A DNA stretch of 64,000 bases from an uncultured Bacilli bacterium (GCA_944371905.1 CALVYA010000004.1:9078-73077), one strand, 5' to 3'. Counted from the stretch's first letter, positions 7,183 through 49,848 are shown. The notes: generated by a model not told the origin, from the sequence alone. Numbers and translations are program-made.

Positions 7183-7195
7183 AACTTCATTAAAA

Positions 7196-8422
7196 TTAAT
7201 GAAGTTCTTGTTTTTTTATTTGATCTATTTTATCTTTTACTTGCTTTAGCATTCTTTCGTTAGGTGAATTGTCACTTGGAATATAGTATCTTTTATTTTT
7301 TAAATTATCAGGCAAATATTGTTGTACTACAAAATGATTAGGATAATCATGGGGATATTTATATGTAGAAGATGAGTTTTTGATATGCGTAGGAATATTA
7401 CCACATCGACCAGTTCTTACATCTTCTAAAGCTTTATCTAAAGCAAGATGACTAGTATTAGATTTAGGAGACAATGCTAGTTCTATTACGACTTCCGCTA
7501 GAGGAATTTTAGCTTCTGGTAGACCTACTAGTTGACTAGCCTGAATAGCAGCCATCACTTTGGGACCCATAGATGGATTGGCTAGTCCAATATCTTCATA
7601 ACATATAACACTCATTCGTCGAAAAATACTGTCTAAATCACCAACTTCAATTAATCTTGCTAAATAATGTAAGCTAGCATCTACATCACTTCCACGAATA
7701 GATTTTTGGAAAGCACTTAAAAGATCGTAATGACCATCTTCGTTTTTATCATAAAATAAAGAAGGTTTATTATTAATTTTAGTTAAATGTTCCATAGTTA
7801 TTTTTTTATCTGGGGAAGAATAATATGCTACTTCTAATAAATTATAAGCATATCTTAAATCAGTATTAGCGACTTTGGCTATATAATCTATACTTTCTTT
7901 ATCTATTTCAATCCCTTTTAAATATTCACTTTGAACTGCTTTATTTAATCCTTCCATAATATCGTCATCACTAAGAGGCAAAAGTTCAAACAATTGACAT
8001 CTACTTCTAATAGCAGGATTAATGGCATGATAAGGATTACTGGTAGTAAGACCTATTAAAGTAATTAAACCGCTTTCCAATTGAGGCAATAATAAGTCTT
8101 GTTTATCTTTGTTTAAACGATGAATTTCATCCATGATTAAAACCATACCATCAAATAATTTGGCTTCTTCTACTACAACATCAAAATCATGTTTATTATT
8201 AATGGTAGCATTTAAAAAACGATATTTTACTCCTAATTGTTTCACAATAGCATTAGCAATCGATGTTTTACCAATACCAGGACGTCCATATAAAATCATA
8301 GAGAATATTTTATTGTTGTTCACCAGATTCGTTAAAACTTTACCTGGACCTATTAAATGTTTTTGTCCAATTACTTCCTCTAGCGAATTAGGTGCTAATT
8401 TTAATGCTAATGGTTTATCCAT
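7196..8422 (-). CDS. rarA: Replication-associated recombination protein A (MgsA/RarA AAA+ ATPase)
   Basis: GRPGIGKT Walker A, MDEIHR, TTSNP, SAFQKSIRGSD, YPHDY. Confidence 0.95.
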   Translation of the reverse strand: MDKPLALKLAPNSLEEVIGQKHLIGPGKVLTNLVNNNKIFSMILYGRPGIGKTSIANAIVKQLGVKYRFLNATINNKHDFDVVVEEAKLFDGMVLIMDEIHRLNKDKQDLLLPQLESGLITLIGLTTSNPYHAINPAIRSRCQLFELLPLSDDDIMEGLNKAVQSEYLKGIEIDKESIDYIAKVANTDLRYAYNLLEVAYYSSPDKKITMEHLTKINNKPSLFYDKNEDGHYDLLSAFQKSIRGSDVDASLHYLARLIEVGDLDSIFRRMSVICYEDIGLANPSMGPKVMAAIQASQLVGLPEAKIPLAEVVIELALSPKSNTSHLALDKALEDVRTGRCGNIPTHIKNSSSTYKYPHDYPNHFVVQQYLPDNLKNKRYYIPSDNSPNERMLKQVKDKIDQIKKQELH

Positions 8423-8597: not shown

Positions 8598-11500
8598 ATG
8601 ACAAATATGGCCCTAGGAATAGACATTGGAATATCTTCTGTAGGAGTAGGAATAATTAATCAAGATACTGGAGAAATTATCGATAGTGCAGTTAGAATTT
8701 TCCCTCAAAATCATAAAGAAGATAATACTATAAGACGTACCATGAGGGGTAGTAAGAGAACATTAAGAAGAAAAAAACATCGTTTAGAAAGAGTAAGAGA
8801 TGAATTAGAAAATATAGACTTTCCTTGCCCAGACTATAAAAAATATAGTCATACTAATCCTTATGAAATTAGAGTCAAAGGATTAAATCATAAACTGTCA
8901 AAAGAGGAGATCTACATAGCTATTATGCATATTACTAAAAGACGTGGAATTAGTTATCTAGAAGATTTTACAAATGATAATATTAAAGATCCAAAAGTAA
9001 CAAACAAAATAATAGAAGAAAACTTAGAACTATCTAAAAACAAATATATATGTGAGATTCAGTTAGAGCGTTTACAAAATAATGATAAGGTACGTGGAAT
9101 TGATAATGTTTTTGAGACTAGAAAATATATAGAAGAATTGCAAAAAATTCTAAAAACGCAAGCTATATATTATGAAGAAATAGATGATGAATTTATTAAT
9201 GTAATAACAAATATAGTGAAATCAAAACGTGAATATTTTGAAGGACCTGGAAGCATTAAATCGAAAACAGATTATGGAAGATTTAAAACGAATGGAGAAG
9301 TATTAGATAATCTATTTGAAATATTGATTGGTAAATGTAGTATCTTTAAAGAGGAATTACGTGCTCCTAGAGCCTCCTACGATGCACAATTATTTAATTT
9401 TTTAAATGATTTAAATAATTTGATTATTAATAATGAGAAACTGACAAAAGAGGATAAACTAGCTATATATCATCATGTGATGAATTCTAAATCAGTTAAT
9501 ATGATTAATTTTATATGTAAATTAAAAAATGTTACAAAAGAACAAATAGAAGGTTATCGCATTGATCCTAATGGCAAACCTTTATTTCATAAGTTTGAAA
9601 TATATAAAAACTTTATGAATCAATTAGAAAAACGAGGAATAGATTCTAGTATGATTGACATTACTTCTTATAATAAAATTAGTCGTTGTCTTACCTTAGA
9701 GACTTCTAAAGCAAGAAAAGAAAAAGTTTTAAAAGAAGAATTGCCTGAGTTAAAAATAGAGGTTATTAAGGCTATCATTGAATTGGATGACAGTCATTTT
9801 AGCAAATGGCATTCCTTATCTTATAAGGCTATGAATGAAATTATCGATGATTTATGGAATACTTCCTTAGAACAACATACTTTGTTTTTACAACATAATT
9901 TGATTAAAGAGAACTACGAAATATATCAAGGTAAAAAGAATATTCCTACGGATTTTATTGATATGGATATTATGAATCCTATAGCAAGAAGAAGCATTCG
10001 GCAGGCTATTAAAATGATTAATGCTTTAAGAAAAAAATATGGGGAATTTAGCCATATTATTATTGAAATGGCTAGAGAACTATCCACAGATCCTAAAGAA
10101 ATACAAAAAGAACAAAAAAGAAATATGAAAGAAAAAGAAGAAGCGGTAGCTTTAGTAAAAGAATATGGGTATACATTAAATTCAATCCCAAATGAATTAC
10201 TAACAATGTTACGTTTATGGAAAAGTCAGGATGGAAAATGTATTTATTCTCATAAAAGTATTTCTATAGATGATTTAATAAATAATCACTATATGTTTCA
10301 AATTGATCATATTATTCCTAAATCGATTTCTTTTGATGATAGTATGAAAAATAAAGTACTATGCTATAGTAGTGAAAATCAAAAGAAAGGAGTTAAAATT
10401 CCCTCTCGCTATTTTGCAAGTGGTATGGCTAGTATTAGTTATGAAGAATATAAAAATTATGTTTTAGATTTGTTTGAACGTAATTTAATTACTAACGCTA
10501 AAAAAGAGTTGTTATTATATGATAAAGATATTACAAAATATGAAGTAAGAAGAGGATTTATTAATCGTAATTTGCAAGATACAAGATATGCTACTAGAGT
10601 AGTATTAAACACTTTACAAAATTATATGAAAGCTAATAATATAAAAACTAGTATTTTTACAGTAAAAGGAGCCTATACCAGTAAAATTAGAAATAGATGG
10701 AATCTTTCTAAAGATCGAACTTATTATAAACATCATGCAGTTGATGCATTAATTGTTGCCGCTAGTAATAAAGCAAAATTATATTATGATGGTCCTTTTT
10801 ATAATTATATTAATTCTTTTTTGAATAACGAGAAAGAAGAGAACCTTCTTATCCATAATGTTATAGATGATACTACTTATGATGAGATTGTATATTCAGA
10901 GCCATATTCTCATTTTATTAAAAATTTGAAAGAATTAAATCCAAAAATATCTCACAAAGTAGATACTAAAATAAATAGAGTTATTTCTGATGCAACTATA
11001 AAATCTTCTAGAATTATAAATGGTCATGAATATAAAATAACAAAATCAAATAACATTTATGAACAGGATGGTGAAAAAATAAAAAAGAAAATTTTAGAAA
11101 ATCCAGAGCAATTACTAATGTATTATCATGATAGACAGACATTTGATTATTTAGAAGAAATAGTAAAACACTATGCTGATGCTAAAAATCCTTTTTTAGA
11201 ATACTATAAAGAGCATGGAGCTATAAGAAAATATTCTAAAAAAGGAAATGGTCCTGTTATTACTTCTGTTAAATATTTAAATGGTAAATTAGGAATTCAT
11301 TTATCTATTCGGCACAAATATAAAGATACCAAAAATAATGTTTTTTTATCAACCCTTAAACCTTATAGAATAGATGTATATCAAAATGATAAAGGAAAAT
11401 ATAAATTTATTACTATTACTAACTCGATGTTTTCCTTTCATGGTGATAAATTACAATTAGAAAAAAGTCAATTGGAATTAGAAAAAAATAAGAAGAAAAT

Positions 11501-11768
11501 AACAGATGATTATCAGTTTCAATTCTCTTTATATAAAGGAGACTGTTTTGAAATAATGATAAATGATCATAAATATACCTATTCATTTTTAGGTATTCAA
11601 AGTGATAAAACAAATAAAATAGAATGTACTTATGTGGAAAAACAAAGGAGGAAAGAAGAAAGAATTTTTCTTAGTATTGGACCAAGTGTAAAAGAATTTA
11701 GAAAGTACTATACCGATATTTTAGGTAATAAATATTATAGTAAGTCCTTGACAAAATGTAATAATTAA
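8598..11768 (+). CDS. cas9: Type II-A Cas9, compact (1056 aa), S. aureus / S. thermophilus CRISPR1-like
   Basis: RuvC-I GIDIG, bridge helix RRTMRGSKRTLRRKKHR, RuvC-II IEMARE, HNH QIDHIIP...NQKK, RuvC-III HHAVDA, C-terminal TDILGN; catalytic residues appear intact. Confidence 0.97.
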   Translation: MTNMALGIDIGISSVGVGIINQDTGEIIDSAVRIFPQNHKEDNTIRRTMRGSKRTLRRKKHRLERVRDELENIDFPCPDYKKYSHTNPYEIRVKGLNHKLSKEEIYIAIMHITKRRGISYLEDFTNDNIKDPKVTNKIIEENLELSKNKYICEIQLERLQNNDKVRGIDNVFETRKYIEELQKILKTQAIYYEEIDDEFINVITNIVKSKREYFEGPGSIKSKTDYGRFKTNGEVLDNLFEILIGKCSIFKEELRAPRASYDAQLFNFLNDLNNLIINNEKLTKEDKLAIYHHVMNSKSVNMINFICKLKNVTKEQIEGYRIDPNGKPLFHKFEIYKNFMNQLEKRGIDSSMIDITSYNKISRCLTLETSKARKEKVLKEELPELKIEVIKAIIELDDSHFSKWHSLSYKAMNEIIDDLWNTSLEQHTLFLQHNLIKENYEIYQGKKNIPTDFIDMDIMNPIARRSIRQAIKMINALRKKYGEFSHIIIEMARELSTDPKEIQKEQKRNMKEKEEAVALVKEYGYTLNSIPNELLTMLRLWKSQDGKCIYSHKSISIDDLINNHYMFQIDHIIPKSISFDDSMKNKVLCYSSENQKKGVKIPSRYFASGMASISYEEYKNYVLDLFERNLITNAKKELLLYDKDITKYEVRRGFINRNLQDTRYATRVVLNTLQNYMKANNIKTSIFTVKGAYTSKIRNRWNLSKDRTYYKHHAVDALIVAASNKAKLYYDGPFYNYINSFLNNEKEENLLIHNVIDDTTYDEIVYSEPYSHFIKNLKELNPKISHKVDTKINRVISDATIKSSRIINGHEYKITKSNNIYEQDGEKIKKKILENPEQLLMYYHDRQTFDYLEEIVKHYADAKNPFLEYYKEHGAIRKYSKKGNGPVITSVKYLNGKLGIHLSIRHKYKDTKNNVFLSTLKPYRIDVYQNDKGKYKFITITNSMFSFHGDKLQLEKSQLELEKNKKKITDDYQFQFSLYKGDCFEIMINDHKYTYSFLGIQSDKTNKIECTYVEKQRRKEERIFLSIGPSVKEFRKYYTDILGNKYYSKSLTKCNN

Positions 11769-11777
11769 TTATATACT
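11748..11777 (+). promoter_or_regulatory. tracrRNA promoter overlapping cas9 3' end
   Basis: TTGACA(11748)-N18-TATACT(11772). Confidence 0.75.
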
Positions 11778-11783
11778 GGTATT

Positions 11784-11876
11784 GTGAACGACGGTTCACC
11801 AAATACCGTAAGTTAACAGAGCTTACTAAAATAAGGGTTTATCCCGAAATCGAGATTCTTTGGAATCTCTTTTTTT
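11784..11876 (+). ncRNA. tracrRNA: tracrRNA
   Basis: Anti-repeat CAAATACCGTAAGTTAACAGAGCTTACTAAAAT pairs with repeat nt 1-31 with the typical bulge; nexus-like AAGGGTTTATCCCG; terminator GAGATTC-TTTG-GAATCTC-T7. Confidence 0.9.
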
Positions 11877-11881
11877 ATATT

Positions 11882-12784
11882 ATGTTTCGAATTATATATA
11901 TAAAAGAAAGCGAAAAATTATCTTTAAAGTTAGATAGTTTGTTAATTGATAACAATAATAATGAATATTCTATACCACTAGAAGATATAGATACGATCAT
12001 GTTGGAAAATAATAAATGTATATTAACTTCAAAATTGATTTGTAAATTAATGGAATATAAAATTAACTTTATAGTTTGTAATGACAAAATGATGCCTACA
12101 GGAATGATGTTACCATATCAACAACATAGTAGGGGAACTAAAGTTATTTTAAACCAAATAAGTTGGACAAAAGAAACTAAAGATTTTTTATGGGATATCA
12201 TAATAGAAAACAAAATAAGAAATCAAAGAAAAACACTAGAATTATTTAATAAGACCAAAAAAGTGATTGATAAATTAAAAGAATATGAAGAATTAGTAGA
12301 TAACGGAGATAGTAGTAATAAAGAAGGCCATGCTGCTAAAATATATTTTAATGAAATGTTTGGAAAAGATTTTATTAGATTTGATAATGATCCAGTTAAT
12401 AGTGCATTAAATTATGGATATACCATATTAAGAGCCAATATATGTAGAGTTGTAGTCGCATATGGATTAATTCCTAATCTTGGTATTAATCATAGAAATG
12501 AATTTAATAATTACAACCTTGCTGATGATATTATAGAAGTATATCGACCAATTGTAGATATGTGGGTATACAAAAATATGATACATAAAACCTTTTTATC
12601 TAGAGAAGATAGAATGAGTTTGATTAATCTATTAAATGGTACTATTGAAATTGGCAATACTACACAAACGTTAACCAATTCATTTCAAAAATATTTAAAT
12701 GGAATATTAGGCTTTATTGAAACTGGTGATCTAGGTAGGTTAGTCTTTCCTAAAATTGAAACTTTTAAAGAATATGAATTATAG
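11882..12784 (+). CDS. cas1: CRISPR integrase Cas1 (type II)
   Basis: EGHAAKIYF, NSALNYGYTIL, GINHRNEFNNYNLADDIIEVYRP. Confidence 0.96.
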   Translation: MFRIIYIKESEKLSLKLDSLLIDNNNNEYSIPLEDIDTIMLENNKCILTSKLICKLMEYKINFIVCNDKMMPTGMMLPYQQHSRGTKVILNQISWTKETKDFLWDIIIENKIRNQRKTLELFNKTKKVIDKLKEYEELVDNGDSSNKEGHAAKIYFNEMFGKDFIRFDNDPVNSALNYGYTILRANICRVVVAYGLIPNLGINHRNEFNNYNLADDIIEVYRPIVDMWVYKNMIHKTFLSREDRMSLINLLNGTIEIGNTTQTLTNSFQKYLNGILGFIETGDLGRLVFPKIETFKEYEL

Positions 12785-13100
12785 ATTTATGAGATTATTA
12801 GTTATGTTTGATTTACCTACTAATACAGCTTTAGATATTAGAAATTATAATAATTTTAGAAAATTTCTTATTAAAGAAGGATTTTATATGTTGCAGTATT
12901 CCATATATGTAAAAATATGTACTAATAAAGATTCTGCGGATTTAGAAGTAAATAAAATAATAAAAAACAAGCCTCCACAAGGAGCGATAAGGACTTTAAT
13001 ATTAACGGAAAAACAATACTCTGATATGAATATCATCATTGGTGGAAGTAAAAAAGAGGACGAAAAAATAGGTATTAGAAAATTAATAATTTTTGATTAG
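12774..13100 (+). CDS. cas2: Cas2
   Basis: MNYRFMRLLVMFDLPT, MLQYSIY, LTEKQY; overlaps cas1 stop. Confidence 0.96.
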   Translation: MNYRFMRLLVMFDLPTNTALDIRNYNNFRKFLIKEGFYMLQYSIYVKICTNKDSADLEVNKIIKNKPPQGAIRTLILTEKQYSDMNIIIGGSKKEDEKIGIRKLIIFD

Positions 13101-13102
13101 AG

Positions 13103-14167
13103 GTGATAATAATTATAATAGAAAAATTTAATCATATAAATAATTTTAAATTACCAACCAACAATATTAATTTTATAATAGGAAATGATTATAATTTTAA
13201 AAATGATATTATAAAAGCTTTGTCTATCTACTTTGGTAATGAAAAAGAAAGTACTGATTATATAGAATATAATAATACAAAATTACAAATTTTAAATAAA
13301 AATAATCTGATAAATCCAAAAGAATATAAGTTCTTAAAATTAGATATATTAAAATTAGATTTGAATAATGAAATAGAATTAAATAAACATTCTTTTTTTA
13401 GAGAAATTATGGATAATTATTTACAAAATAATTACATTAGTACTGATTTAGAAATGTTAGTAAACTCTATCATTGAAGATATATTTTGTGATAAAGAATA
13501 TGATTTTGCTAACGGCATTTCTTTAAAAGTTAATATTAATCCATTAACTAGTAAAATAATAATTGAACATTTATTAAACATTGAAGTTAAAAAGAATGAT
13601 CAAAATATTCCTATTGATTATCTAACATATTTTGATAAAGTCAATATATTGTTAGAAGAAATCGGGCATTTGATTGATATTTATTTAAAGGAAAATAAAG
13701 TAATTCTAGTACTTGATAATATAGATTATAAATTAACGATAGAGGAAATCAAAAAAATATACAAAAAAATCCAAATATTAAGTGAATATCCTGATTTATA
13801 CATTTATATATTTACAAATAATACAATTTTAATAGAAAATCAAAGTAATTTATTGAAATGTGTTCTTATTAATATTAACAATAGTATTGTCTATTTTGAA
13901 AATTATGACGATATTTTGTTGAAAATAAAAGAGAATTATCCGTTGGTAATAGAAGATAAACATTTAGATAAATTAACAACAAGCACAATAGTAAAAAATA
14001 TAAATAGTATTTGTAATTTATGCACATTAAGTGATAGTGAATTTAATAATTTAGAGGAAATGACAATAATAAAAATAATCAATGATATTTTTGATTTTAA
14101 ATATGATCTTAATTTTTTGTATGAATATTCAAATAATTGTTATTATTCTTATTTAACGAGCGACTAA
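13103..14167 (+). CDS. csn2: Csn2, long (S. thermophilus CRISPR1-type) form; start codon uncertain
   Basis: 354 aa ORF between cas2 and the array, size and position typical of the long Csn2; sequence highly diverged. Confidence 0.75.
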   Translation: MIIIIIEKFNHINNFKLPTNNINFIIGNDYNFKNDIIKALSIYFGNEKESTDYIEYNNTKLQILNKNNLINPKEYKFLKLDILKLDLNNEIELNKHSFFREIMDNYLQNNYISTDLEMLVNSIIEDIFCDKEYDFANGISLKVNINPLTSKIIIEHLLNIEVKKNDQNIPIDYLTYFDKVNILLEEIGHLIDIYLKENKVILVLDNIDYKLTIEEIKKIYKKIQILSEYPDLYIYIFTNNTILIENQSNLLKCVLININNSIVYFENYDDILLKIKENYPLVIEDKHLDKLTTSTIVKNINSICNLCTLSDSEFNNLEEMTIIKIINDIFDFKYDLNFLYEYSNNCYYSYLTSD

Positions 14168-14214
14168 TTTAAATGATTGTATTTTTTTTAAAATAATTAT
14201 ATAATTATTTTGAG
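14168..14214 (+). promoter_or_regulatory. Short CRISPR leader with promoter and leader-anchoring sequence
   Basis: TTGTAT(14177)-N17-TATAAT(14200); leader ends TTTTGAG, matching the ATTTGAG-type II-A leader end. Confidence 0.8.
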
Positions 14215-15233
14215 GTTTTAGTATTCTGTTAATTTAAGGTATTTGAAAACGTGAGATATTAAAGAGTATAGCAAGGCAAAGTTTTAGTATTCTGTTAATT
14301 TAAGGTATTTGAAAACTTGTTACTGCTTTAACAACTGGTATTACTGGTTTTAGTATTCTGTTAATTTAAGGTATTTGAAAACTTAAATATTTAACGACAC
14401 GACTTGGACTTTGTTTTAGTATTCTGTTAATTTAAGGTATTTGAAAACTTCGGAGCAAAAGTAGTTGCGGAAATAGTAAGTTTTAGTATTCTGTTAATTT
14501 AAGGTATTTGAAAACATCTTAATAATCATTATAGTTTTTATCCAAGTTTTAGTATTCTGTTAATTTAAGGTATTTGAAAACTAGATGGAGTAAAGTCTTT
14601 ATTTATTCCAGGTTTTAGTATTCTGTTAATTAAGGTATTTGAAAACAAAAGATGTTAATAGAATAACAACAACTTATGGTAAAGAAGAGTACGATGGCAG
14701 TTCATTAGAAGGATTACCAGGTTATATGGAACGTAACAGAGATAATATTGTGTATGATATAGATAAAGACATAAAAAAAAGAACCACTAACCCAAAGCTC
14801 CAATTGCATAACGTTAGTGGTTCATCTGGGAATAATATAACACAAACTGTTGAAAATGTCAATTTCCCTATTAATTACGATATGCAAAATCAACAAAATA
14901 ATACACAAGATTTTAAAGTTCCTATTCAAGAAGATATAAGACAAATGGAAATTTCTGATATCAAATTACCAACTAGAAAAACTTTAAATCCAACAGAAAT
15001 ATCTAGTTTAATTGAAGAAGATGAAAATACAACACCAATATTACCAAATGCTAAAGTTTCAACAGGAAAAGGAGAAAGTAATTTTGGTAATAATATTGAA
15101 AATAAAAATAATATGTTAAATGAAAATAGTAAAAGTACTATATTATCAGTTTGTTTTAGTATTCTGTTAATTTAAGGTATTTGAAAACGATTATTTAATA
15201 GTTTTCTATTACTGTTAGGTTTTAGTATTCTGT
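14215..15233 (+). CRISPR. Type II-A CRISPR array: 8 repeats plus truncated terminal repeat, 8 spacers, one of 506 bp
   Basis: Repeat GTTTTAGTATTCTGTTAATTTAAGGTATTTGAAAAC at 14215, 14281, 14347, 14413, 14480, 14546, 14612 (35 nt, one T missing), 15153; 15-nt partial at 15219; seven spacers of 30-31 nt. Confidence 0.98.
14647..15152 (+). other. 506-bp giant spacer or captured coding fragment within the array
   Basis: Flanked by repeats 7 and 8; one frame is stop-free across its whole length (ORF 14639-15175). Confidence 0.85.
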
Positions 15234-15326
15234 GACTTATATTTTCTTTAAAATATTGCATTAAATATTTTTGTAATATTTTTTTATTTTATAGATTGTG
15301 GTAAAATATAGGTGCAAGGTGATTAT

Positions 15327-29372: not shown

Positions 29373-29429
29373 TTTTATCTTTATTTTTTCTTATTTTTCA
29401 ATTCTTTTTTAAAACTGCCCGTTATTCAG
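29373..29429 (-). repeat. Conserved 3' flank shared with paralog 2 (40010-40067)
   Basis: ~57 nt, differing by one substitution and one indel. Confidence 0.85.
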
Positions 29430-31413
29430 TAATTATATAAGGCTCAGAACTAGTGCCATCTCCTTGGATAATTTCAACATCAGCACTTAAATTAATGACC
29501 GGGCGGACACCTCCAACAATATTAACATTGCCATAGTTATCTATGCCTCCAAAGGAACCAATACTACCAGCATGAGCTATACCTTCAGAAAAATCAATAG
29601 GACTCATTGTCCAATACCAAGCTCCTGTATATAGAAAATAATCATTATTTTCTCTTACTAATCCTCCACCCGCATACATTCCTTCATCTAATGTTATTAA
29701 TCCTATTGGATAATCTAATGCTTTATTTCCTTTATTACTACTACTAGTTGTATACAAATCATTACTTTGTGGGCATCCAAACCGTGGCGCGAATTCATCG
29801 ATTCTGTTAACTAAACTATACATAGTTTCATTTTGAGCATATCCTGATCCATCAAATACACTTCTATCACCGCAGAAACCACTATCTGATAAAAATTTAG
29901 TATAACTTAGTAAATTTTCTTTATACCAAGCATCTAAATATAATTTCATTACACTATCATGGGTATTAATATGTGTTGAATCATAATTATTACCTCCTGC
30001 CTCGCCATACATATATCCTACATAGGCATTATCATTGTAAGCAGTATTACAAGCACTTTTTCCTATCGTGGCTTCGTTTCCTGTCGCCCTAGAATTTGTA
30101 CCTTGATAAATGAGTCTTATTGACTCATCTTCATTAATTCTTATAATCCTCCAGTAAAATCCTGCAAAATATACATAATTATTCTCTACTGCTCCCCTAA
30201 AATAATACGTTGTCTTATTATCTTCCGTATTCTTGTTTGTATAGTATAATCCCGTCGTTCCATCCTCTTCACTCGTTTTACTAAAATCGATATTGGTATC
30301 TATTTGGGCTATGTTATCTTTTAATATTGCTATATTTAAATATGGTATCTTCTCTACATTACTTTTTAATGTTATTATTACTGGCCTTATTCTTTTTGCT
30401 GTAGTAGCTGAAGCTGTTGTTATTGTACTTCCATTAAAGTAATAAACAGTATTATTGCTGGTTCCTTTAGTCATTAACCAAAAGTTATAATTATTGGTTG
30501 TTGGTACCCAACTAGGAATTCCTCTTTTTGTTAGGTCATCATATTCTTCTTTCGTTAATAGTCTTGCTGTGGTTCCTGCTATATTCCCTCCATTATTCTT
30601 GATACTATTCTTGATATATGTTTCTACCGTATTCTTAACATAATATCCTATGTTATTTGTATCAAACTGATCATATTCATTCGTATTGTTACTATCAAAA
30701 GCTTTTGTATAAGTTCCATTCGTGGATACACTTCCATTACTACTTACTGTATTTTCACTTACTAGGGTTACTTTATCTTCATTACTAGAACTATTTTTAG
30801 TAACATACCAAATAGTGCCATCGATCAATCGAACCGCTTCTCCTACTTCATAAATTTCATACTCTCCTTCACTACTTCCTCCGGAACTACTTGGTTTACT
30901 ATTATCTATATAAATAAACGTTAGCATTAATTCTTTTTTTGTTTCACTGATATTCGTTACTCCACTTTTATATTTGATTGTTACTTTGGCTGTATTGGTC
31001 TCTCCTGGAGCTAAGGTTGTTACTTCTTCTTCTATCCCACTAATCTCATAAGTAATATTACTGTTCTCATCTTCAATTATTTCAATGTCATTTAATTTGG
31101 CTGGAATATTCCCTTGATTAGATAAAGTAATAGTATAAGTGATGGTAGAACTTGACGTTGGTAAGTTAGCATTTAAGGTTACTGTATTACTTACATAGTT
31201 ACTACTGATACTTGTAGCACTATTCGTTACCGTATTGGTTACCTTTGTTACCTTTACTATCCAACTTCTATCGATACTTGCTATTCCGTCTAGTTCTATA
31301 TATTGACTTAAAGCGGCATCCCCTAGGCTCATTACAAATACCACAAGACATAAGGATAACACTAGTATTCGCCTTTTTGTAAAGAACCTTTTTATTCTCT
31401 TCGTTGTTACCAA
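29422..31413 (-). CDS. Secreted TasA-like / CLec-like (DUF6273-like) surface protein, paralog 1; start codon doubtful
   Basis: N-terminal hydrophobic signal + LAPGETNTAKVTI Ig-like domain; YFRGAVENNYV, YPIGLITLDE, GVRPVINL, GDGTSSEPY. Confidence 0.75.
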   Translation of the reverse strand: MVTTKRIKRFFTKRRILVLSLCLVVFVMSLGDAALSQYIELDGIASIDRSWIVKVTKVTNTVTNSATSISSNYVSNTVTLNANLPTSSSTITYTITLSNQGNIPAKLNDIEIIEDENSNITYEISGIEEEVTTLAPGETNTAKVTIKYKSGVTNISETKKELMLTFIYIDNSKPSSSGGSSEGEYEIYEVGEAVRLIDGTIWYVTKNSSSNEDKVTLVSENTVSSNGSVSTNGTYTKAFDSNNTNEYDQFDTNNIGYYVKNTVETYIKNSIKNNGGNIAGTTARLLTKEEYDDLTKRGIPSWVPTTNNYNFWLMTKGTSNNTVYYFNGSTITTASATTAKRIRPVIITLKSNVEKIPYLNIAILKDNIAQIDTNIDFSKTSEEDGTTGLYYTNKNTEDNKTTYYFRGAVENNYVYFAGFYWRIIRINEDESIRLIYQGTNSRATGNEATIGKSACNTAYNDNAYVGYMYGEAGGNNYDSTHINTHDSVMKLYLDAWYKENLLSYTKFLSDSGFCGDRSVFDGSGYAQNETMYSLVNRIDEFAPRFGCPQSNDLYTTSSSNKGNKALDYPIGLITLDEGMYAGGGLVRENNDYFLYTGAWYWTMSPIDFSEGIAHAGSIGSFGGIDNYGNVNIVGGVRPVINLSADVEIIQGDGTSSEPYIITE

Positions 31414-31439: not shown

Positions 31440-31470
31440 ATTATACCCCCCCCCCCCAGAAAATTTTCAA
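31440..31470 (-). promoter_or_regulatory. Poly-G (G12) spacer promoter of paralog 1
   Basis: Minus strand TTGAAA(31470-31465)-19 nt incl. G12(31457-31446)-TATAAT(31445-31440). Confidence 0.8.
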
Positions 31471-40009: not shown

Positions 40010-40067
40010 TTTTATCTTTATTTTTTCTTATTTTTCAATTCCTTTTTTAAAACTGTCCGTTATTCAG
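40010..40067 (-). repeat. Conserved 3' flank shared with paralog 1
   Basis: GAATAACGGACAGTTTTAAAAAAGGAATTGAAAAATAAGAAAAAATAAAGATAAAA (minus strand). Confidence 0.85.
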
Positions 40068-41547
40068 CTAATTGATATGGATTAGAAACAGTTCCATCTC
40101 CTATCAATTGTCCTGCATCAGATTTCAGATTGATGACCGGACGGACACCCCTCGAATAGTTGACGCGGTAGTCGCTGAACAAGCGACCGAAGGAATTGAC
40201 GCCGCCAACGACAGCGTAAGACCCATCGAAGCCGACAGGGGTAAGACCCCAATAGTAATCACCTGTATATAAGTAATAACTTTCATTACTATTAAAAACT
40301 GTTCCCCCTGCATACATTCCTTCATCTAAGGTTATCAATCCTATTGGATACTCTAATGACTTATTCCCTTTTGTACTATTTCTTGTTGTATATAAATCTT
40401 GATTTTGTGGACAACTATATTGTGGTTGATAAGTATTAAATAATCTATTATTTATTTGATAATATGTTTCGTTCTTTCCATATCCTAATCCAGTAGACCC
40501 TTCCAAAGTAGCAATACTTCTATCTCCACAAAATCCACTATCTGCTATGTAACTCGCATAACTTAATAAATTCTCTTCATACCATGTATCTAATACTGTT
40601 TTGATTGTACTATCATTAATATTTGCATGGGTCTCTTCATAGGTGCTACTTCCAGGTGTTCCATACATATATCCTACATACGCATTATCATTATATTCTT
40701 CATTAAATGCACTACTTCCTATCATTGCTTCACTTCCCATTGCATCTGGTGTTGTTCCTTGATAGATAATTCTTAAACTTCCATCTTCATTGATTCTTAT
40801 AATCCTCCAATAGTATCCTGCAAATTTTACATAGTTATTCTCTACTGCTCCTCTATAGTAATATACTGTCTTCCCATCTTCTGTATTTGTGTTCGTATAA
40901 TATAATCCTTTCGTTCCATCTTCTTCACTTGTCTTACTAAAATCTATTTCACTATCATTTTTTACTGTATTATCTTCTAGTATAGAATTAATGAAAGATG
41001 GTCCTTCTATTTCTGGATCACTTGGGGTTATCTCTTGTCCTACATTTTGGGCATAATCAATATTTACTGTTAACTTATTATTTGTCTTTTCTGGTTGACT
41101 TGTTATACTATTATCATAACTTATCTTTATCTTAAATGTCGTACTTTCTTGTTTTAATAAGATATCTCCTATTCTTATATTACTGATTTCAAACTTTATT
41201 GCATCACTTCCAGTCTCACTAGCATTAATATCTTCTATGATGGCATCTAGTGTTCCTTGGTTCTCTACTGTGATTTGATATTCTATTGAGTCTCCCGGCT
41301 TTTGTAAATCTACATCAAATGTGACCGTTGTTCCACTTGCTGTTGGAGTATTATTTATCGTTACTCCATTTGTTTTACTTAACTCTTGAATATTCGTAAA
41401 TACTACTTTCCAATTCGATTCGATACTTGATGTTCCATTGATATTTAATGTTGTACTAAATGCTGCAAATGCTATTGCCATAATACAAATTAAACTACAC
41501 ATCACTCCTATGATTATTTTCTTTTCTCTCATATACTTCTCTTTCAT
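40060..41547 (-). CDS. Secreted TasA-like / CLec-like surface protein, paralog 2; probable DGR target
   Basis: IAFAAFSTTLNINGT signal motif, LQKPGDSIEYQITVENQG domain, C-terminal YW..GVRPVINL domain with GC-rich tip. Confidence 0.8.
   Translation of the reverse strand: MKEKYMREKKIIIGVMCSLICIMAIAFAAFSTTLNINGTSSIESNWKVVFTNIQELSKTNGVTINNTPTASGTTVTFDVDLQKPGDSIEYQITVENQGTLDAIIEDINASETGSDAIKFEISNIRIGDILLKQESTTFKIKISYDNSITSQPEKTNNKLTVNIDYAQNVGQEITPSDPEIEGPSFINSILEDNTVKNDSEIDFSKTSEEDGTKGLYYTNTNTEDGKTVYYYRGAVENNYVKFAGYYWRIIRINEDGSLRIIYQGTTPDAMGSEAMIGSSAFNEEYNDNAYVGYMYGTPGSSTYEETHANINDSTIKTVLDTWYEENLLSYASYIADSGFCGDRSIATLEGSTGLGYGKNETYYQINNRLFNTYQPQYSCPQNQDLYTTRNSTKGNKSLEYPIGLITLDEGMYAGGTVFNSNESYYLYTGDYYWGLTPVGFDGSYAVVGGVNSFGRLFSDYRVNYSRGVRPVINLKSDAGQLIGDGTVSNPYQLAE
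40126..40263 (-). other. Putative DGR variable region (VR) with IMH-like GC core GGTGTCCGTCCGGTCAT
   Basis: 46 consecutive codons with no A at third position, 23 ending in C; 71/120 G+C at 40131-40250 versus AT-rich rest of gene. Confidence 0.75.
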
Positions 41548-41577: not shown

Positions 41578-41608
41578 ATTATACCCCCCCCCCCCAGGAA
41601 TTTTTCAA
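41578..41608 (-). promoter_or_regulatory. Poly-G (G12) spacer promoter of paralog 2
   Basis: Minus strand TTGAAA(41608-41603)-19 nt incl. G12(41595-41584)-TATAAT(41583-41578). Confidence 0.8.
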
Positions 41609-43783: not shown

Positions 43784-44752
43784 ATGAAAACAAAAATAAC
43801 AAGTTTACTTATTGTTGTACTATTAGTAATTACTACTATATTATTTTTAACTTTTCCAGAAGATGTCATGTCTTCAGTTAGCTTTTCTATTTCTATTTGG
43901 AAAGATACGCTAATTCCATCTTTATTTCCTTTCTTTTTAATTTCTGAATTATTAATTCATTATGGGTTTATTGAATTATTAGGTGAAGGATTAAGAGGTT
44001 TTATGAATAAAGTATTTCATTTACCGGGGGAAGCATCTTTCGTCTTAATTGGAAGTTTAATATCAGGGTTCCCTAGTAGTAGTAAATATATTAGTGGACT
44101 ATTAGATGATGGGAAAATTAATATTCAACAAGCTTCTTATTTATTAAAATTTAATCATTTTTCTAATCCTTTATTTGTAATTGGAACTGTAGGTACCTTA
44201 ATGTTAAATAACAAAAGTATTGGGATCTTAATTTTAATCATACATATATTATCCAATTTTATCGTAGCAATGATTTATCGTCCTAAATATTGTAATGATA
44301 CCCCTGCAAAATCATCTTTTTTTATAGGAATTAGTCGCATGCATAAAAAAAGAATAGATAATAATACTTCCTTCGCTTCCTTTCTTACTGAAAGTATTTT
44401 TAAGATATTTCAAACTTTATTATTACTATTGGGAATCATTACTAGTTTTTTAATTATTACTACGTTATTAAAAAAGGTTTTAAACTTAGATAGTATGTCC
44501 TTTTCTATTTTAAGCGGTCTTTTAGAAATGACACAAGGAATAAAAAATATATCTTTATTAGATATATCTCTTAGTATCAAAGCTAGTATTATTACTTTTT
44601 TTATTTCTTTTGGGGGATTTAGCATCCATATGCAAGTACTTTCTATTTTATCTAATTATAAAATAAAGTATCTTCCTTACCTTTTAGCAAGACTAGTTCA
44701 TGCTATCATTGCTAGTAGTATTATTTTCATCCTTTTAACCCTAGTTATTTAA
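43784..44752 (+). CDS. ylbJ: Sporulation integral membrane protein YlbJ-like
   Basis: LIPSLFPFF, SGFPSS, FSNPLF, GLLEMTQG, GGFSIHMQV; adjacent to ylbL. Confidence 0.85.
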   Translation: MKTKITSLLIVVLLVITTILFLTFPEDVMSSVSFSISIWKDTLIPSLFPFFLISELLIHYGFIELLGEGLRGFMNKVFHLPGEASFVLIGSLISGFPSSSKYISGLLDDGKINIQQASYLLKFNHFSNPLFVIGTVGTLMLNNKSIGILILIIHILSNFIVAMIYRPKYCNDTPAKSSFFIGISRMHKKRIDNNTSFASFLTESIFKIFQTLLLLLGIITSFLIITTLLKKVLNLDSMSFSILSGLLEMTQGIKNISLLDISLSIKASIITFFISFGGFSIHMQVLSILSNYKIKYLPYLLARLVHAIIASSIIFILLTLVI

Positions 44753-45287
44753 CCCCAGTAGTTACGACATCTATTACAAATTCATCATCCAAATCTTGAT
44801 GATCAATACGTAATTTTATATGATATATTACTCCATATTCTAAATTATCAGTACTAACAGAAGAAGTTAAAATATAATCATCTACCACATTAGCAAATTT
44901 AGGATCTGGATTATCATATTTTACTCCACCATATAGAATATAAAATGTTGGTATTTCAAAGTGACCATCCATGATCACATCTTCTACTACTTTTAATTGC
45001 TTAGTAGCACCATCTAGAAATTTAATATCGATACATTGTTTAATGATGGAATTATCATTATTTCTACAAAAATCAATAGAATCTACTTTACGATCTACTG
45101 TATCTTGATAAATATCTTGTGTTAAAGTATTTTGTAGTGTCAATAGATCTCTTCTTACAGATTCTTCTTGCTCTCTATTACGATAATTATTGACAAGAGC
45201 AAACATTGCTACTGCTAAAAACATAACTAGAGCAAAACTTAAAATTAATTCAATTACAGTAAAACCTTTATTATTATCCAACATCAT
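44745..45287 (-). CDS. Type IV pilin-like protein
   Basis: Class III signal KG|FTVIE + hydrophobic helix. Confidence 0.8.
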   Translation of the reverse strand: MMLDNNKGFTVIELILSFALVMFLAVAMFALVNNYRNREQEESVRRDLLTLQNTLTQDIYQDTVDRKVDSIDFCRNNDNSIIKQCIDIKFLDGATKQLKVVEDVIMDGHFEIPTFYILYGGVKYDNPDPKFANVVDDYILTSSVSTDNLEYGVIYHIKLRIDHQDLDDEFVIDVVTTGVK

Positions 45288-45861
45288 AACGCACCTCTAT
45301 ATTTGAAAATCTTCCATCATTAAATACTACTATCATTCTATAATAACTATCATATCTACTAGAATACTTTCCATAATCAGGAAGATAATCTACGTATTCT
45401 CTCAATGCTCGATCAAAATTCTTATTGTCTTTGACTTCATTTTTAAAACTTCCTAATTTAAACGGCGTTACAATGACTTCCTTGACATTTAAATAATCTT
45501 CACTAAATAATTTATTGCAATAATTAGGAGAAGTTAATAATGAACAAAGACGATTTTTAGTAACAACATCATCTCCTACCGTTTCATTATAATTTTGATA
45601 ACGATAGTAGCCACTATTACCTGAAATATGACTAGAAAATATACTAGTTAAATTAGCATCTTTATCAAATTCTCTTAGAAGCATTTTTCTAATTTCATGA
45701 GCTTTATATTTGGTATCTACATTATCGTAATCACTTACCCGTTCATAATCAGCGATCAATGGCAAAAAATTTGTAAATAAAAAGGTACATATCCCTATTA
45801 CAAATACTGCAACAATAATAGTTTCAACCATTACAAACCCCTGGTTGTCAATCTTTTTCAT
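45274..45861 (-). CDS. Type IV pilin-like protein
   Basis: Class III signal QG|FVMVE + hydrophobic helix. Confidence 0.75.
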   Translation of the reverse strand: MKKIDNQGFVMVETIIVAVFVIGICTFLFTNFLPLIADYERVSDYDNVDTKYKAHEIRKMLLREFDKDANLTSIFSSHISGNSGYYRYQNYNETVGDDVVTKNRLCSLLTSPNYCNKLFSEDYLNVKEVIVTPFKLGSFKNEVKDNKNFDRALREYVDYLPDYGKYSSRYDSYYRMIVVFNDGRFSNIEVRYDVG

Positions 45862-45955: not shown

Positions 45956-47323
45956 ATGGTAGAATATGATTTACAACATGTACCAATAGTAGATATTGTT
46001 AACCAAATTATATTGTATGCTGCACAACATAATGCTAGTGACATACATTTGGATCCTAGGGAAGATTGTCTAATGATTCGTATGCGTATGGATGGACAAT
46101 TAAGAGACCATACTATGATTCCTAAAGAATATGAACGTAATTTAACTACTAGGGTAAAACTGATATCTAATATGAATATTACGGAAACAAGATTACCTCA
46201 AGATGGAGCCATTAAAGGACGTATTGAAGGAAAAGATTTAGATATGCGTGTATCTGCTCTACCTACTAATGAGGGAGAAAAAGTAGTTATTCGTATTTTG
46301 GATTTTACTAAAAGCTTGACAGGAATGGATAGTTTAGGTTTTTCTCCTAAAAATTATAAATTAGTTAGTAAGATGATGGAAGTACCTAATGGTATCATTT
46401 TAGTTACTGGTGCTACTGGTAGTGGTAAATCTACTACTACTTATTCCATGTTACAAGCACTAAATAAAGAAGAAACCAATATTATTACCGTAGAAGACCC
46501 AATAGAAATGAATATTGAAGGAATTAACCAAGTACAAGTAAATAGTGATATTGGATTAACTTTTGCCACCGTTTTAAGATCTATTTTAAGACAAGATCCT
46601 AATATTATTCTAATAGGAGAAATTCGTGATTCAGAAACAGCAAAAATAGCTGTTCGTGCTTCTATTACTGGTCACTTAGTACTATCAACTATCCATACTA
46701 ATGATTCTTTAAGTACTATTGAAAGATTACTAGATATGGATGTAGAACGATATTTATTGTCTAGTGCATTAACTGGTATTATTTCTCAAAAATTAGTAAG
46801 AACTCTTTGTCCTTATTGTCGTAAAAAAAGACCTGTCACTCCTTATGAAGAACATTTTTTTAGAAGAGTGTTAAATAAATATGTTCCTGAAGTATACGAA
46901 CCTGTGGGATGTGAACACTGTAATCACGGATTTAGAGGCCGTATGGCTGTACATGAAGTTTTATATATTACTGATCACTTGAGAGATGTTATTAGTGATC
47001 CTAGTATTGATAAAGAAGAATTAAGAAAAATTGTTTATAATGGAAGTACTACTACTCTACTACAAGATGCTTTAGAAAAAGTAATTGAAGGATATACAAC
47101 TTTTAATGAAGTGGTACGTATCGTTGAAGTAGATGCTGATTTAGAAAAAAGTATTTCAACTGAAGTGGAAGAAGAAACTGTTTCTAAATATGAAAAAGAG
47201 GAAGAAGAGAAAGAAATATATGAAATTATTGATGCGTATGAATTAGAAGTCATTGATGCTTATGCTGTTGAAATAGAAATTATCGATATGTATGATAGTT
47301 TTAGATTAAATTATGGCACTTAA
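45956..47323 (+). CDS. PilB/GspE-family secretion or pilus assembly ATPase
   Basis: ASDIHLDP, GATGSGKS, TVEDPIE, LRQDP..GEIRD, HLVLSTIH, CPYC..CEHC zinc motif. Confidence 0.92.
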   Translation: MVEYDLQHVPIVDIVNQIILYAAQHNASDIHLDPREDCLMIRMRMDGQLRDHTMIPKEYERNLTTRVKLISNMNITETRLPQDGAIKGRIEGKDLDMRVSALPTNEGEKVVIRILDFTKSLTGMDSLGFSPKNYKLVSKMMEVPNGIILVTGATGSGKSTTTYSMLQALNKEETNIITVEDPIEMNIEGINQVQVNSDIGLTFATVLRSILRQDPNIILIGEIRDSETAKIAVRASITGHLVLSTIHTNDSLSTIERLLDMDVERYLLSSALTGIISQKLVRTLCPYCRKKRPVTPYEEHFFRRVLNKYVPEVYEPVGCEHCNHGFRGRMAVHEVLYITDHLRDVISDPSIDKEELRKIVYNGSTTTLLQDALEKVIEGYTTFNEVVRIVEVDADLEKSISTEVEEETVSKYEKEEEEKEIYEIIDAYELEVIDAYAVEIEIIDMYDSFRLNYGT

Positions 47324-47358: not shown

Positions 47359-49848
47359 TTAATCCGTTAGAATTATATATGGATCATTTTCTGTACCATT
47401 ACCTGATATCCACTCTACATTAGATTTTAAATTAATTACGGCACGAACACTTAACAAGTAGTTCAATCTGCGTATATCTAAATTACCATCATTACCTACT
47501 GTAAAATTATATGCATAATTACGATCTATTTCACTACCACCATTTTCTAAAGAAACATTGCTTGGTGTCATCGTCCAATACTCACCTTCAGAATATAAAT
47601 AATAACTATCATTTGATTTACTTATTACTCCTCCTGCATATGCTACTTCATCTAAAGATATTAATCCAACCGGATAATCTAACGCTTTATTTCCCTTTGT
47701 ACTACTAGATGTAGTATATAAATCATTACTTTGTGGACACGCAAACTGTGGTGTTTTATTATTATATAATCTATTGTATGCTCCATAGTAAGTAGTAGTT
47801 TCCGCAATTCCTGTCCCACTAGATAAGCTCCTATCTCCACAAAATCCTGCATCTGCTAAATAAGAAGCATAATCCAATAGATTTTCTTCATACCAAGTAT
47901 CTAATACTGTCTTGATTCTACTATCATTGATATTAGCATGTGTTGCTGAATAACTACTACTTCCTGTCTCTCCATACATATATCCTACATGGGCATTATT
48001 ATTATAAACAATATTAAACACACTATTTTGAGTTTCAATTTCAGCGTCTTGTTTATCCATAATAATTCGAATAGAACCGTCTTCATTAATTCTTATAATC
48101 CTCCAGTAAAATCCTGCAAATTCTACATAGTTATTTTCTACTGCTCCCCTAAAATAATAGGTGGTTTTATTATCTTCTGTATTTTCATTGGTATAATATA
48201 ATCCTTGTCCATTAGTACTACTACTTATTTGACTAAAATTGATATTACTATCACTTTGTTCATTATTGTCTTCTAATATTTGATCTTTTAAATATGCCGG
48301 TTGTTTTATATTCCCTTTTAATGTGGTTATTACTGGTCTTACTCGATAATACGAAGTTGGCGTTGCTTGCGATAAACTACTCCCATTAAAGTAATATACA
48401 TTATTTCCTATTTTCGTCATCAACCAATATCCATACCCATTGGCTACTTTTACCCAACTTGGTATTTCACTTCCCTTCTTCGTCATTTTATCATATTCTT
48501 CTTTGGTTAATAACCTAGCTTTCGTACTGGCTTCTTTTCCTCCATTATTTTTTATACTATTCTTAATATAACTTTCTACGGTATTCTTTACATAATATCC
48601 TATATTATTACTATCATAGGGATCATATTCGTTGGTATTATTACTATCAAAAGACCTCCCTGCTACCGATGGTGGTACTGCTACGCTCCCATTACTTGCT
48701 GCTAAGTTCTCACTCATTAATGTTACCATCGCATTTCCTGTCCCACTATCTTTGGTTACATACCATATCGTTCCATCTATTAGTTCCACTTTCTCTCCTA
48801 CTTCATATCTTTTATGCTTTTCCAAATTACTCTTTGCTACTGTGATTACTGGTCTGATTCCACTTTCAATAGTATCATCTATTTTAAATATAAAAGTTTC
48901 TTCTTCTACGTAACCTATAACATAATAACTATTTGATCCATTTATTAATGATAATTCATGTTCTTCTCCTAATAACCATTCTGCTATAGTAAACTTCTCA
49001 CTGGAAGCCGAGTAATCTTTATTTGCATCATAGGCTATCCCTGATAACTTTGCTATCTCTTCCATCGTTGGTAATCTTTTTGTTAATACTTTACTTTTGT
49101 TATAGTATACATTTGCATAGTTATTTAAGGCGGTTTGGGCTCCACTGGCTGTCGATGTCGTTACGGCTTCATCTGCTATCATTTGTACTGTAGTAGCACT
49201 TGTTGTGTCATTCGTGGTTACTATGTAATATAATTTCTCTCCATTCCCTGCATTATACATCACTGCTTCTCCTGGTTGATATACTACATTTTCTGTATCT
49301 GATGTGGAATCTCCTGAATTTCCTCCTGTTGTCCCACTATTTTCTACATAAATAAAGGTTAGCATTAATTCTTTTTTTGTTTCACTGATATTCGTTACTC
49401 CATTTTTATATTTAATTGTTACTTTGGCTGTATTGGTTTCTCCTGGGGCTAAGGTCGTTACTTCTTCTAATACCCCACTAATTTCATAGGTGATATTACT
49501 ATTCTCATCTTCAATTATTTCAATGTCATTTAATTTGGCTGGAATATTCCCTTGATTAGATAAAGTAATAGTATAAGTGATGGTAGAACTTGACGTTGGT
49601 AAGTTAGCATTTAAGGTTACTGTATTACTTACATAGTTACTACTAATACTACTTGCTCCATTACTTGTGGTATTAGTAACGTTCGTTACTTTTACTATCC
49701 AGCTTCTATCAATACTTGCTATTCCATCTAGTTCTACATATTGACTTAAGGCAGCATACCCTAGACTCATTACAAATACCACAAGACATAAGGATAACAC
49801 TAATATTCTTTTCTTATCAAAAAATCCTTTAATTTTCCTTTTCATCAC
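47359..49848 (-). CDS. Secreted TasA-like / multi-CLec-like surface protein, paralog 3
   Basis: SLGYAALSQY signal; N-terminal domain near-identical to paralog 1; three modules ending IRPVI, VRPVI, VRAVI. Confidence 0.8.
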   Translation of the reverse strand: MMKRKIKGFFDKKRILVLSLCLVVFVMSLGYAALSQYVELDGIASIDRSWIVKVTNVTNTTSNGASSISSNYVSNTVTLNANLPTSSSTITYTITLSNQGNIPAKLNDIEIIEDENSNITYEISGVLEEVTTLAPGETNTAKVTIKYKNGVTNISETKKELMLTFIYVENSGTTGGNSGDSTSDTENVVYQPGEAVMYNAGNGEKLYYIVTTNDTTSATTVQMIADEAVTTSTASGAQTALNNYANVYYNKSKVLTKRLPTMEEIAKLSGIAYDANKDYSASSEKFTIAEWLLGEEHELSLINGSNSYYVIGYVEEETFIFKIDDTIESGIRPVITVAKSNLEKHKRYEVGEKVELIDGTIWYVTKDSGTGNAMVTLMSENLAASNGSVAVPPSVAGRSFDSNNTNEYDPYDSNNIGYYVKNTVESYIKNSIKNNGGKEASTKARLLTKEEYDKMTKKGSEIPSWVKVANGYGYWLMTKIGNNVYYFNGSSLSQATPTSYYRVRPVITTLKGNIKQPAYLKDQILEDNNEQSDSNINFSQISSSTNGQGLYYTNENTEDNKTTYYFRGAVENNYVEFAGFYWRIIRINEDGSIRIIMDKQDAEIETQNSVFNIVYNNNAHVGYMYGETGSSSYSATHANINDSRIKTVLDTWYEENLLDYASYLADAGFCGDRSLSSGTGIAETTTYYGAYNRLYNNKTPQFACPQSNDLYTTSSSTKGNKALDYPVGLISLDEVAYAGGVISKSNDSYYLYSEGEYWTMTPSNVSLENGGSEIDRNYAYNFTVGNDGNLDIRRLNYLLSVRAVINLKSNVEWISGNGTENDPYIILTD

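Follow-up and report, generated by a model that had tools for sequence, protein, structure and literature searches.

A GC-rich and A-poor segment at the tip of a gene

We analysed a window of 64,000 nucleotides (nt) from an uncultured Bacilli bacterium (GCA_944371905.1, CALVYA010000004.1:9078-73077); "the window" always denotes this whole stretch of 64 kb. On its minus strand, at 40060-41547, lies a gene (hereafter the target gene) for a protein of 495 amino acids (aa) with an N-terminal hydrophobic helix, an Ig-like beta-sandwich and a C-terminal DUF6273-like domain. The tip of this last domain is encoded by a GC-rich, A-poor segment (40126-40263, minus strand) in which an earlier reading of the sequence alone, which we call the original prediction, had recognised the variable region (VR) of a diversity-generating retroelement (DGR). 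Three parts can be distinguished in the segment: on its 5' side a conserved scaffold (YYWGLTP), then the putatively mutagenised VR core (40150-40233, minus strand; aa 439-466, GFDGSYAVVGGVNSFGRLFSDYRVNYSR), with NNC or NNT codons at the places where homologous VRs vary, and on its 3' side a GC core together with ATCAATCTG. The GC core, GGTGTCCGTCCGGTCAT (40133-40149, minus strand), encodes GVRPVI and resembles an initiation of mutagenic homing (IMH) site.

The window has a GC content of 27.5% and the target gene one of 33%; in windows of 60 nt, the last part of the gene reaches 52-58%, and the segment as a whole has 56%. Its coding strand is made of 43 T, 40 G, 37 C and 18 A, so that A accounts for 13% of the bases and T for 31%. 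The last base of its 46 codons is C in 23 cases, T in 16, G in 7 and never A, in a gene where 208 of 496 codons end in A. When windows of 138 nt are compared, the segment is the top GC peak of the 64 kb (z=+5.7; the best value elsewhere is 0.45), and its depletion in A has a z-score of -3.9. The compositional anomaly at 40126-40263 is real and far beyond chance; the abrupt rise in GC and the codon endings had been described correctly in the original prediction, with which our recount agrees.

The helix at the N-terminus of the target protein (aa 2-33) is a signal or an anchor and carries an AAFST motif. In the AlphaFold2 model of the protein (mean pLDDT 75), this helix is followed by a beta-sandwich at about aa 48-167 and by a C-terminal domain of about 300 aa containing the VR, the strands of which are predicted with a pLDDT of 86-91. 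A structure search with this model in BFVD returned DUF6273 proteins (probability 1.0, TMt 0.54-0.58). DUF6273 has been described as a C-type-lectin-like domain which is diversified by DGRs of gut phages (PMC10743442), and the predicted model is consistent with the C-type lectin fold that had been proposed for the tip. No Pfam family, including DUF6273 (PF19789), matches the target protein even at E<=1, and a precomputed PF19789 match is present in a few of its homologues (P0045, P0058-60; homologous proteins are numbered with the letter P and loci in other genomes or metagenomes with the letter L). This means that the likeness of the target protein to DUF6273, as far as the model goes, is structural. 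A Foldseek search of the PDB with the full-length model gave mainly Ig-like matches, obtained through the N-terminal domain, and neither Mtd, TvpA nor any other solved C-type lectin (CLec) structure was among its top 50 matches. The search for homologues of the target protein returned more than 6000, and an exact look-up of the protein gave no record.

Comparison of homologous variable regions

Conservation among the homologues extends as far as YW..SP and resumes at RPVINL, with fixed variable positions inside a constant scaffold between these two motifs. Two scaffolds can be described. Type 1, xxFxGSxAxEWxVxxxGxLxxxxVxxSxGxRPVINL, is found family-wide, and its pattern of variable positions recurs in hundreds of members. 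Type 2, TPVxFxGxxAxxGxVxSxGRLxxx(x)RVxxSxGVRPVINL, is that of the VR of the window and of P0020, P0027, P0037 and P0049. We compared the VR of the window with that of P0037 (L001 17688-19163, from a related metagenome), a protein which is 60% identical overall. The two VRs differ by one extra codon, placed inside a run of variable codons, and by 11, 7 and 1 substitutions at codon positions 1, 2 and 3, respectively. The identity of third positions in the VR is 0.95 for an amino-acid identity of 0.65; in the rest of the gene the normal pattern prevails, and third positions are the less conserved ones (0.47-0.87). This inversion points to the overwriting of both VRs from a common AAC/AAT-rich template with mutagenesis of its adenines, and, to judge from these alignments, it is not produced by ordinary divergence or by the import of a foreign patch. 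The differences thus fall where an A-to-N mutagenesis, as originally proposed, would place them.

A shift in composition as abrupt as this one might also mark a tract acquired by recombination or horizontal transfer from a high-GC donor, or the effect of a GC-biased gene conversion, with no retroelement involved, and patchy gene conversion between strains does occur in the target gene (see below). However, A alone is depleted in the segment and not A and T together, the differences between homologous VRs are found at codon positions 1 and 2, and the same scaffold of variable positions is shared by hundreds of members of the family. Moreover, the genus possesses AAC-rich templates with adenine-specific mismatches, and the conversion patches observed between strains are AT-rich and located elsewhere in the gene. 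We consider such an origin very improbable.

A last explanation would be ordinary selection acting on a binding loop rich in Gly, Val, Ser, Tyr, Phe and Arg and written in unusual codons, the likeness to a DGR being a coincidence. Some of the GC-rich codon choice is indeed a trait of the family, as the GC core GGTGTCCGYCCGGTCAT is also present in an undiversified paralogue. But the same domain is written in ordinary AT-rich codons in the two paralogues of the window, both of which have AT-rich, undiversified tips, and selection on amino acids leaves unexplained how third positions can be 95% identical when amino acids are 65% identical. We give this coincidence next to no credit. The first paralogue (29422-31413, minus strand, 663 aa) has the same GC core, GGTGTCCGCCCGGTCAT, at 29495-29511, and the second (47359-49848, minus strand, 829 aa) is without it. 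Since the undiversified paralogue 29422-31413 has the same core, the GC core alone is no marker of a VR; the IMH-like role that had been assigned to it is compatible with the related cassettes, where the homology between template repeat (TR) and VR ends there, but the core is not specific to VRs.

The core also takes part in a possible pairing. In the VR gene, its TGTCCGT is complementary to an ACGGACA situated just past the stop codon (DNA fold z=-2.7), and in the paralogue 29422-31413 there is a matching C/G change on both sides of a pairing of this type. This paralogue also has the same sequence after its stop codon, TAACGGGCAGTTTTAAAAAAG (29404-29422), to be compared with TAACGGACAGTTTTAAAAAAGG for the VR gene (40041-40060).

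Template repeats in the same genus

In the pilB-lon region, two genomes, the metagenome-assembled genome (MAG) BRZ_DI__bin68 and GCA_964318055.1, share about 87% of their nucleotides with the window, a value that we took as a sign of the same genus. The conserved 3' end of the VR is found at nine sites of BRZ_DI__bin68. Seven of them are complete type-1 VRs. The ninth, which lies on L016, has an AAC-rich sequence that encodes RNFNGFNANEWNVNADGNLTGNNVNNSNGSRPVINL; it is found 95 nt past a target gene, after a perfect hairpin. On L022 and L033 of the same genome, the tip is divergent and is not of type 1. In this genome and in related samples, AAC-rich template copies of the sister (type-1) VR class are present at L016 6797-6972, L021 1219-1320, L041 1627-1815 and in L129/L130. 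The template that the original prediction had guessed by putting AAC in place of the variable codons (...NVNSNGNLNNNNNVNN..GVRP) closely resembles these real template repeats, for example RNFNGFNANEWNVNADGNLTGNNVNNSNGSRPVINL.

The templates have 32-33 adenines and 75-76 other positions. In comparisons with the type-1 VRs, 14-24 of the adenines are mismatched, and 3-14 of the other positions (Fisher p between 4e-3 and 4e-12). The mismatches at positions other than adenines are in part common to several VRs. This suggests that there have been several variants of the template and that some time has elapsed since the VRs were written.

Every template copy is preceded by a conserved hairpin, CCAGTGGCAAAacccTTTGCCACTGG (CCACCGGCAAcccccTTTGCCGGTGG in L045), as can be seen at L016 6797-7041, L041 1560-1815, L021 1150-1320 and L045 739-925. 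Between this hairpin and the ATG that opens the template lies a spacer which is also conserved and measures about 43 nt, or about 79 nt in L045. The copies of L016 and L041 are situated between a target and rpsU or 6S RNA, with neither avd nor a gene for a reverse transcriptase (RT) alongside. We considered these two copies as a proof that a template can be uncoupled from its RT and rejected the idea: they run through the IMH into the 3' end of a target and do not have the spacer between TR and avd. They would be chimeras, born of TR/VR recombination in a cassette of the L021 type, and not working templates. The 6S RNA gene lies directly downstream of the template copy of L041, at 1873-2047 (Rfam RF00013, 59.8 bits).

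Decayed and intact cassettes in relatives

In L021 (BRZ_DI__bin68; 1219-2206), a conserved spacer of about 180 nt separates the template from an open reading frame (ORF) of 60 codons, whose homologues led us to the cassette of L045. After these 60 codons, the avd of L021 ends and abuts a truncated transposase of the IS256 family of insertion sequences (IS) (aa 7-144 of 379). No RT is found downstream of the truncated avd, where housekeeping genes follow, and an NCBIfam scan of the avd fragment gave no match. The same truncated avd, with an extra frameshift and a mere stub of the IS, was found in L128-L130, which come from three other samples, one of them belonging to the study that also gave the near-identical strain of the window; the decay is seen in at least 4 samples. 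L047 (1-1863) has the avd closest to the L021 fragment; this avd contains an in-frame TGA, and a deletion with a frameshift affects the 5' end of the RT. As these loci are assembled, the DGR cassette is dead in a sister species within the genus of the window, its avd being truncated and its RT gone.

Intact cassettes exist in more distant relatives. L045 displays, in this order, the 3' end of a target, the hairpin, the TR, the spacer, a bAvd-like protein (PF22296) and the RT, and adjoins fmt. Its RT (1420-2937, 505 aa) has an RVT_1 domain with IGNMTSQ and YMDD and ends with a C-terminal MutS_I domain (32 bits for a cut-off of 20.6). In L071, two targets accompany a TR, Avd and an RT (5977-7458) that ends with a MutS_I tail. 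The last 23 nt of the L071 TR (AAC AAT TCG AGG GGT GTC CGT CC) are the 3' end of the VR of the window but for one A. The TRs end with ...GGGGCTCGCCC in L021, ...GGGGTTCGTCCGGTG in L045 and ...AGGGGTGTCCGTCC in L071, and their homology with VRs stops at CGCCC, CGTCCGGTG and CGTCC, respectively, that is, inside the GC core or at its end. On the short contig of L045, the template (843-925) falls about 14 codons short of the length of the VR next to it (500-640) and is hence not colinear with it; a deletion, a different cognate target or an artefact of assembly could be the cause.

A search of metagenome contigs with the L045 RT showed that 137 stretches encode a relative of it, of which we kept the best 80 loci. 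The GC content of these 80 is 21-32%. An N-rich TR-like segment is present in 46 of 83 loci (the 80 RT loci plus L045-L047), nearly always upstream of the RT and on its strand. The C-terminal MutS_I was confirmed in L045, L047 and L071 only, and in L047 it is a separate ORF. We also scanned the 80 RT loci in an adenine-tolerant way, and we discarded most of the matches as A-rich sequence of low complexity; the 3' end of the L071 TR was the one informative match.

Search for the template, the reverse transcriptase and Avd

The original prediction had noticed neither RT, Avd nor TR in the 64 kb, and all our scans of the window agree that the VR is an orphan there. An adenine-tolerant ungapped scan for a template matched only the paralogues 29422-31413 and 47359-49848, scans for RT motifs were negative, and Pfam scans of about 45 ORFs gave only housekeeping genes plus Cas9 and Cas1, with no RT or Avd. 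Outside the window, we looked for an RT within 10 kb on either side of P0007, P0026, P0001, P0097, P0021, P0057 and P0083 and found none; the neighbourhoods surveyed include 58 kb of one scaffold with four members of the family (P0007, P0037, P0057 and P0083). A type-2 template is expected to be followed by ...GGTGTCCGTCC and by the conserved spacer between TR and avd. A profile search for ORFs read from TRs returned many N-rich TR-like ORFs in the style of DUF6273, none of them with the type-2 scaffold. The search of phage genomes with the C-terminal domain (tblastn) gave no match. Two candidates were rejected: the nine matches of the 17-mer CGYCCGGTCATCAATCT in viral contigs are chance hits in unrelated GC-rich sequence, and a GC peak of L003, taken for a possible template, corresponds to tRNA genes.

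Stability of the variable region and other variation in the gene

The strain L004 shares 99.8% identity with the window across 16.7 kb, and the approximately 30 differences between them are all situated in the target gene or just upstream of it. They consist of two clustered patches, three single substitutions and a promoter tract of G13 instead of G12. Patch 1 (41287-41325, minus strand) covers aa 75-87 and patch 2 (40708-40776, minus strand) aa 258-280. The L004 versions of both patches are common to other members of the family (P0003, P0004 and P0008), and other clusters also show internal variation at these positions. Both patches look like the product of gene conversion from a paralogue outside the window, and no donor for them was found within the 64 kb.

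No difference in the VR itself separates the window, P0275 and P0001. P0275 equals the protein of the window throughout, and P0001 differs from it at 12 residues, all elsewhere. Likewise, in ten clusters of proteins built at 90% identity from different samples, N-terminal and middle patches differ and the VR shows 0-1 differences.

Upstream of the target gene lies a promoter-like sequence, TTGAAA-N7-G12-TATAAT (41578-41608, minus strand; poly-G at 41584-41595). The window contains only two runs of seven or more G, both of them G12 and on the minus strand: this one and another at 31446-31457, upstream of the paralogue 29422-31413. Each sits between TTGAAA and TATAAT, with spacers of 19-21 nt, above the optimum. 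The length of the tract differs between samples, G12 in the window for G13 in L004 (6549-6561) and, for P0083, G13 for G12. Tracts of G10-G13 are found in other members of the family, among other sites at L043 9949-9961 and L044 6586-6597 and in L022 and L029. These tracts are candidate phase-variable promoters.

Proposed origin of the variable region

We propose the following history. An AAC/AAT-rich template RNA would have been reverse-transcribed with random misincorporation opposite its adenines, and the resulting cDNA, with the GC core (40133-40149) as its anchor, would have replaced the sequence for the tip of the DUF6273/C-lectin-like domain at the C-terminus. The target gene would be a remote target reached in trans, with template, Avd and RT outside the 64 kb. 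The responsible element would come from a clade of chromosomal DGRs found in low-GC gut bacteria and laid out as target, hairpin spacer, TR, spacer, bAvd and RT with a C-terminal MutS_I. The VR of the window would have been written by a type-2 template that has yet to be found, and most likely it has seldom or never been rewritten since then. The variation that the gene shows today would come instead from the gene-conversion-like patches and from the poly-G promoter tract.

That 40150-40233 is a DGR-written VR of a remote target seems to us highly probable. Given this origin, we judge a frozen VR roughly twice as probable as one still active, because the VRs are static, the core of the cassette is dead in a sister species and no template was found. 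The joint reading, namely the VR of a remote DGR target that is probably a frozen relic, receives a probability of about 0.6. As for the trans-acting DGR of the original prediction, the evidence thus supports its remote target, written by a DGR, and, with an identical VR in three strains, favours a frozen VR over current activity.

Several observations weigh against this history. The exact type-2 VR/TR pattern had 0 matches in viral contigs and 0 in the GTDB representative genomes (among which the genome of the window does not figure), a pattern specific to the type-2 TR had 0 matches in metagenome contigs, and no cognate template or RT for the VR of the window was found in any of the collections searched. 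The 3-14 mismatches outside adenines in the TR-VR pairs of relatives mean that the templates found are not the exact donors of the VRs examined. The close alleles P0042 and P0297 differ at three VR codons with template adenines, so that some recent change of VRs is possible. Finally, that the VRs appear unchanged on the timescale over which conversion patches are gained is drawn from only a few assembled strains.

The same evidence can be read in favour of a target which is still alive, with an intact TR-Avd-RT and a type-2 template elsewhere in the genome and an occasional rewriting of 40150-40233. Intact cassettes of the same clade are found in the relatives L045 and L071, non-phage DGRs can have targets over 100 kb away from their RT (PMC5758913), the TR copies of different genomes agree well in their adenines, and the three codons that separate P0042 from P0297 would fit a recent rewriting. 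On the other hand, the VR is the same in three strains despite two conversion patches and a change in poly-G length, VRs are invariant within the 10 clusters from different samples, avd-RT is deleted in a species of the same genus, and the GTDB and metagenome-contig searches contain no type-2 template. We regard a live target as unlikely, although well worth keeping in mind. If the relic is indeed what we see, one can tentatively imagine three layers of surface variation in this genus: tips written by a DGR that has since decayed and forming a frozen repertoire, poly-G tracts switching paralogues, and conversion shuffling the rest. The retroelement would then have acted as a one-time generator of a library.

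Relation to known systems

The DGR of Treponema denticola has TvpA and seven remote targets, and other non-phage DGRs have remote targets as well (PMC5758913). Like it, the system proposed here is chromosomal, with many scattered paralogous surface-protein targets far from any RT, and has its VR at the C-terminal tip of a putative C-lectin-type domain, ending in a GC-rich, IMH-like core. It differs from it, where FGE-sulfatase/CLec1 targets and HRDC are involved, by a DUF6273-like target, by bAvd with an RT-fused MutS_I and by a core that has decayed in the genus.

MutS_I-like tails of RTs, as well as separate MutS-like (MSL) accessory genes (Architecture D), were already described in the 2018 survey (PMC5758913). 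The related cassettes likewise have MutS_I on their RTs (as in L045), plus Avd. That survey knew three MutS_I-tailed RTs, to be compared with the 137 stretches encoding a relative of the L045 RT; the MutS_I was confirmed only in L045, L047 and L071. In contrast to the RTs of the survey, TR, avd and RT follow one another here on a single strand, after a target and a conserved hairpin spacer.

The DUF6273 targets of gut phages (tentaclins; Faecalibacterium prophages; PMC10743442, PMC11792537) resemble ours by their class of fold, according to Foldseek, and by the style of their VR/TR motif, SP.NFN..NAN..NVN..GN.NNNNVNN.NGVRP. Unlike them, our targets are chromosomal surface proteins of cells, encoded beside genes of the type IV pilus or competence kind, and have no phage match. 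RT-first surveys miss remote targets, as their own authors state (PMC8144416). According to a preprint, the DGRs of type V pilus tips in Bacteroides (bioRxiv 10.1101/2024.11.15.621889) also diversify presumed adhesive surface proteins of gut commensals. Phylum, pilus system and target fold are different, and the link with a pilus is here suggested by the neighbourhood alone.

In contingency loci of mucosal bacteria, such as Neisseria porA/opc and Mycoplasma vlp, homopolymer tracts are found within the spacers of promoters. The G10-G13 tract, placed between -35-like and -10 hexamers and of a length that differs between samples, would be of the same kind. Unlike in such loci, it is combined in a single gene with a tip probably written by a DGR and with gene-conversion patches.

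The mechanism is thus already known; what is added here is the size of the cellular target family, the decay of the core with VRs that persist, and the presence of poly-G tracts and patches in the same genes. Uncultured gut bacteria possess a very large cellular family of presumed adhesins whose tips bear a DGR signature far from any RT, and in at least one species of the genus the core of the retroelement is already dead. If this is general, many of the "orphan" VRs of metagenomes would be a record of past hypermutation and not live systems, which would change how the activity of a DGR can be deduced from sequence. With its poly-G tract and its conversion patches, the target gene is a good candidate for the study of surface variation in commensals.

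Other features of the locus

Between the target gene and the paralogue 47359-49848, the window encodes two neighbouring prepilin-type proteins (44745-45287 and 45274-45861, both on the minus strand), with an N-terminus G|FTVIE or G|FVMVE, and a PilB/T2SSE ATPase (45956-47323, plus strand), which is a neighbour of the type IV pilus or competence kind. In relatives, genes like these (T2SSE, prepilin peptidase A24, PilC-like) also adjoin members of the family.

A type II CRISPR-Cas locus lies at 8598-15257 of the window. It encodes a Cas9 of 1056 aa (8598-11768), Cas1 (11882-12784) and an ORF of 354 aa (13103-14167), and contains 36-nt repeats, GTTTTAGTATTCTGTTAATTTAAGGTATTTGAAAAC, seven copies of which are found at 14215-14650 and two at 15153-15257, about 500 nt further on.

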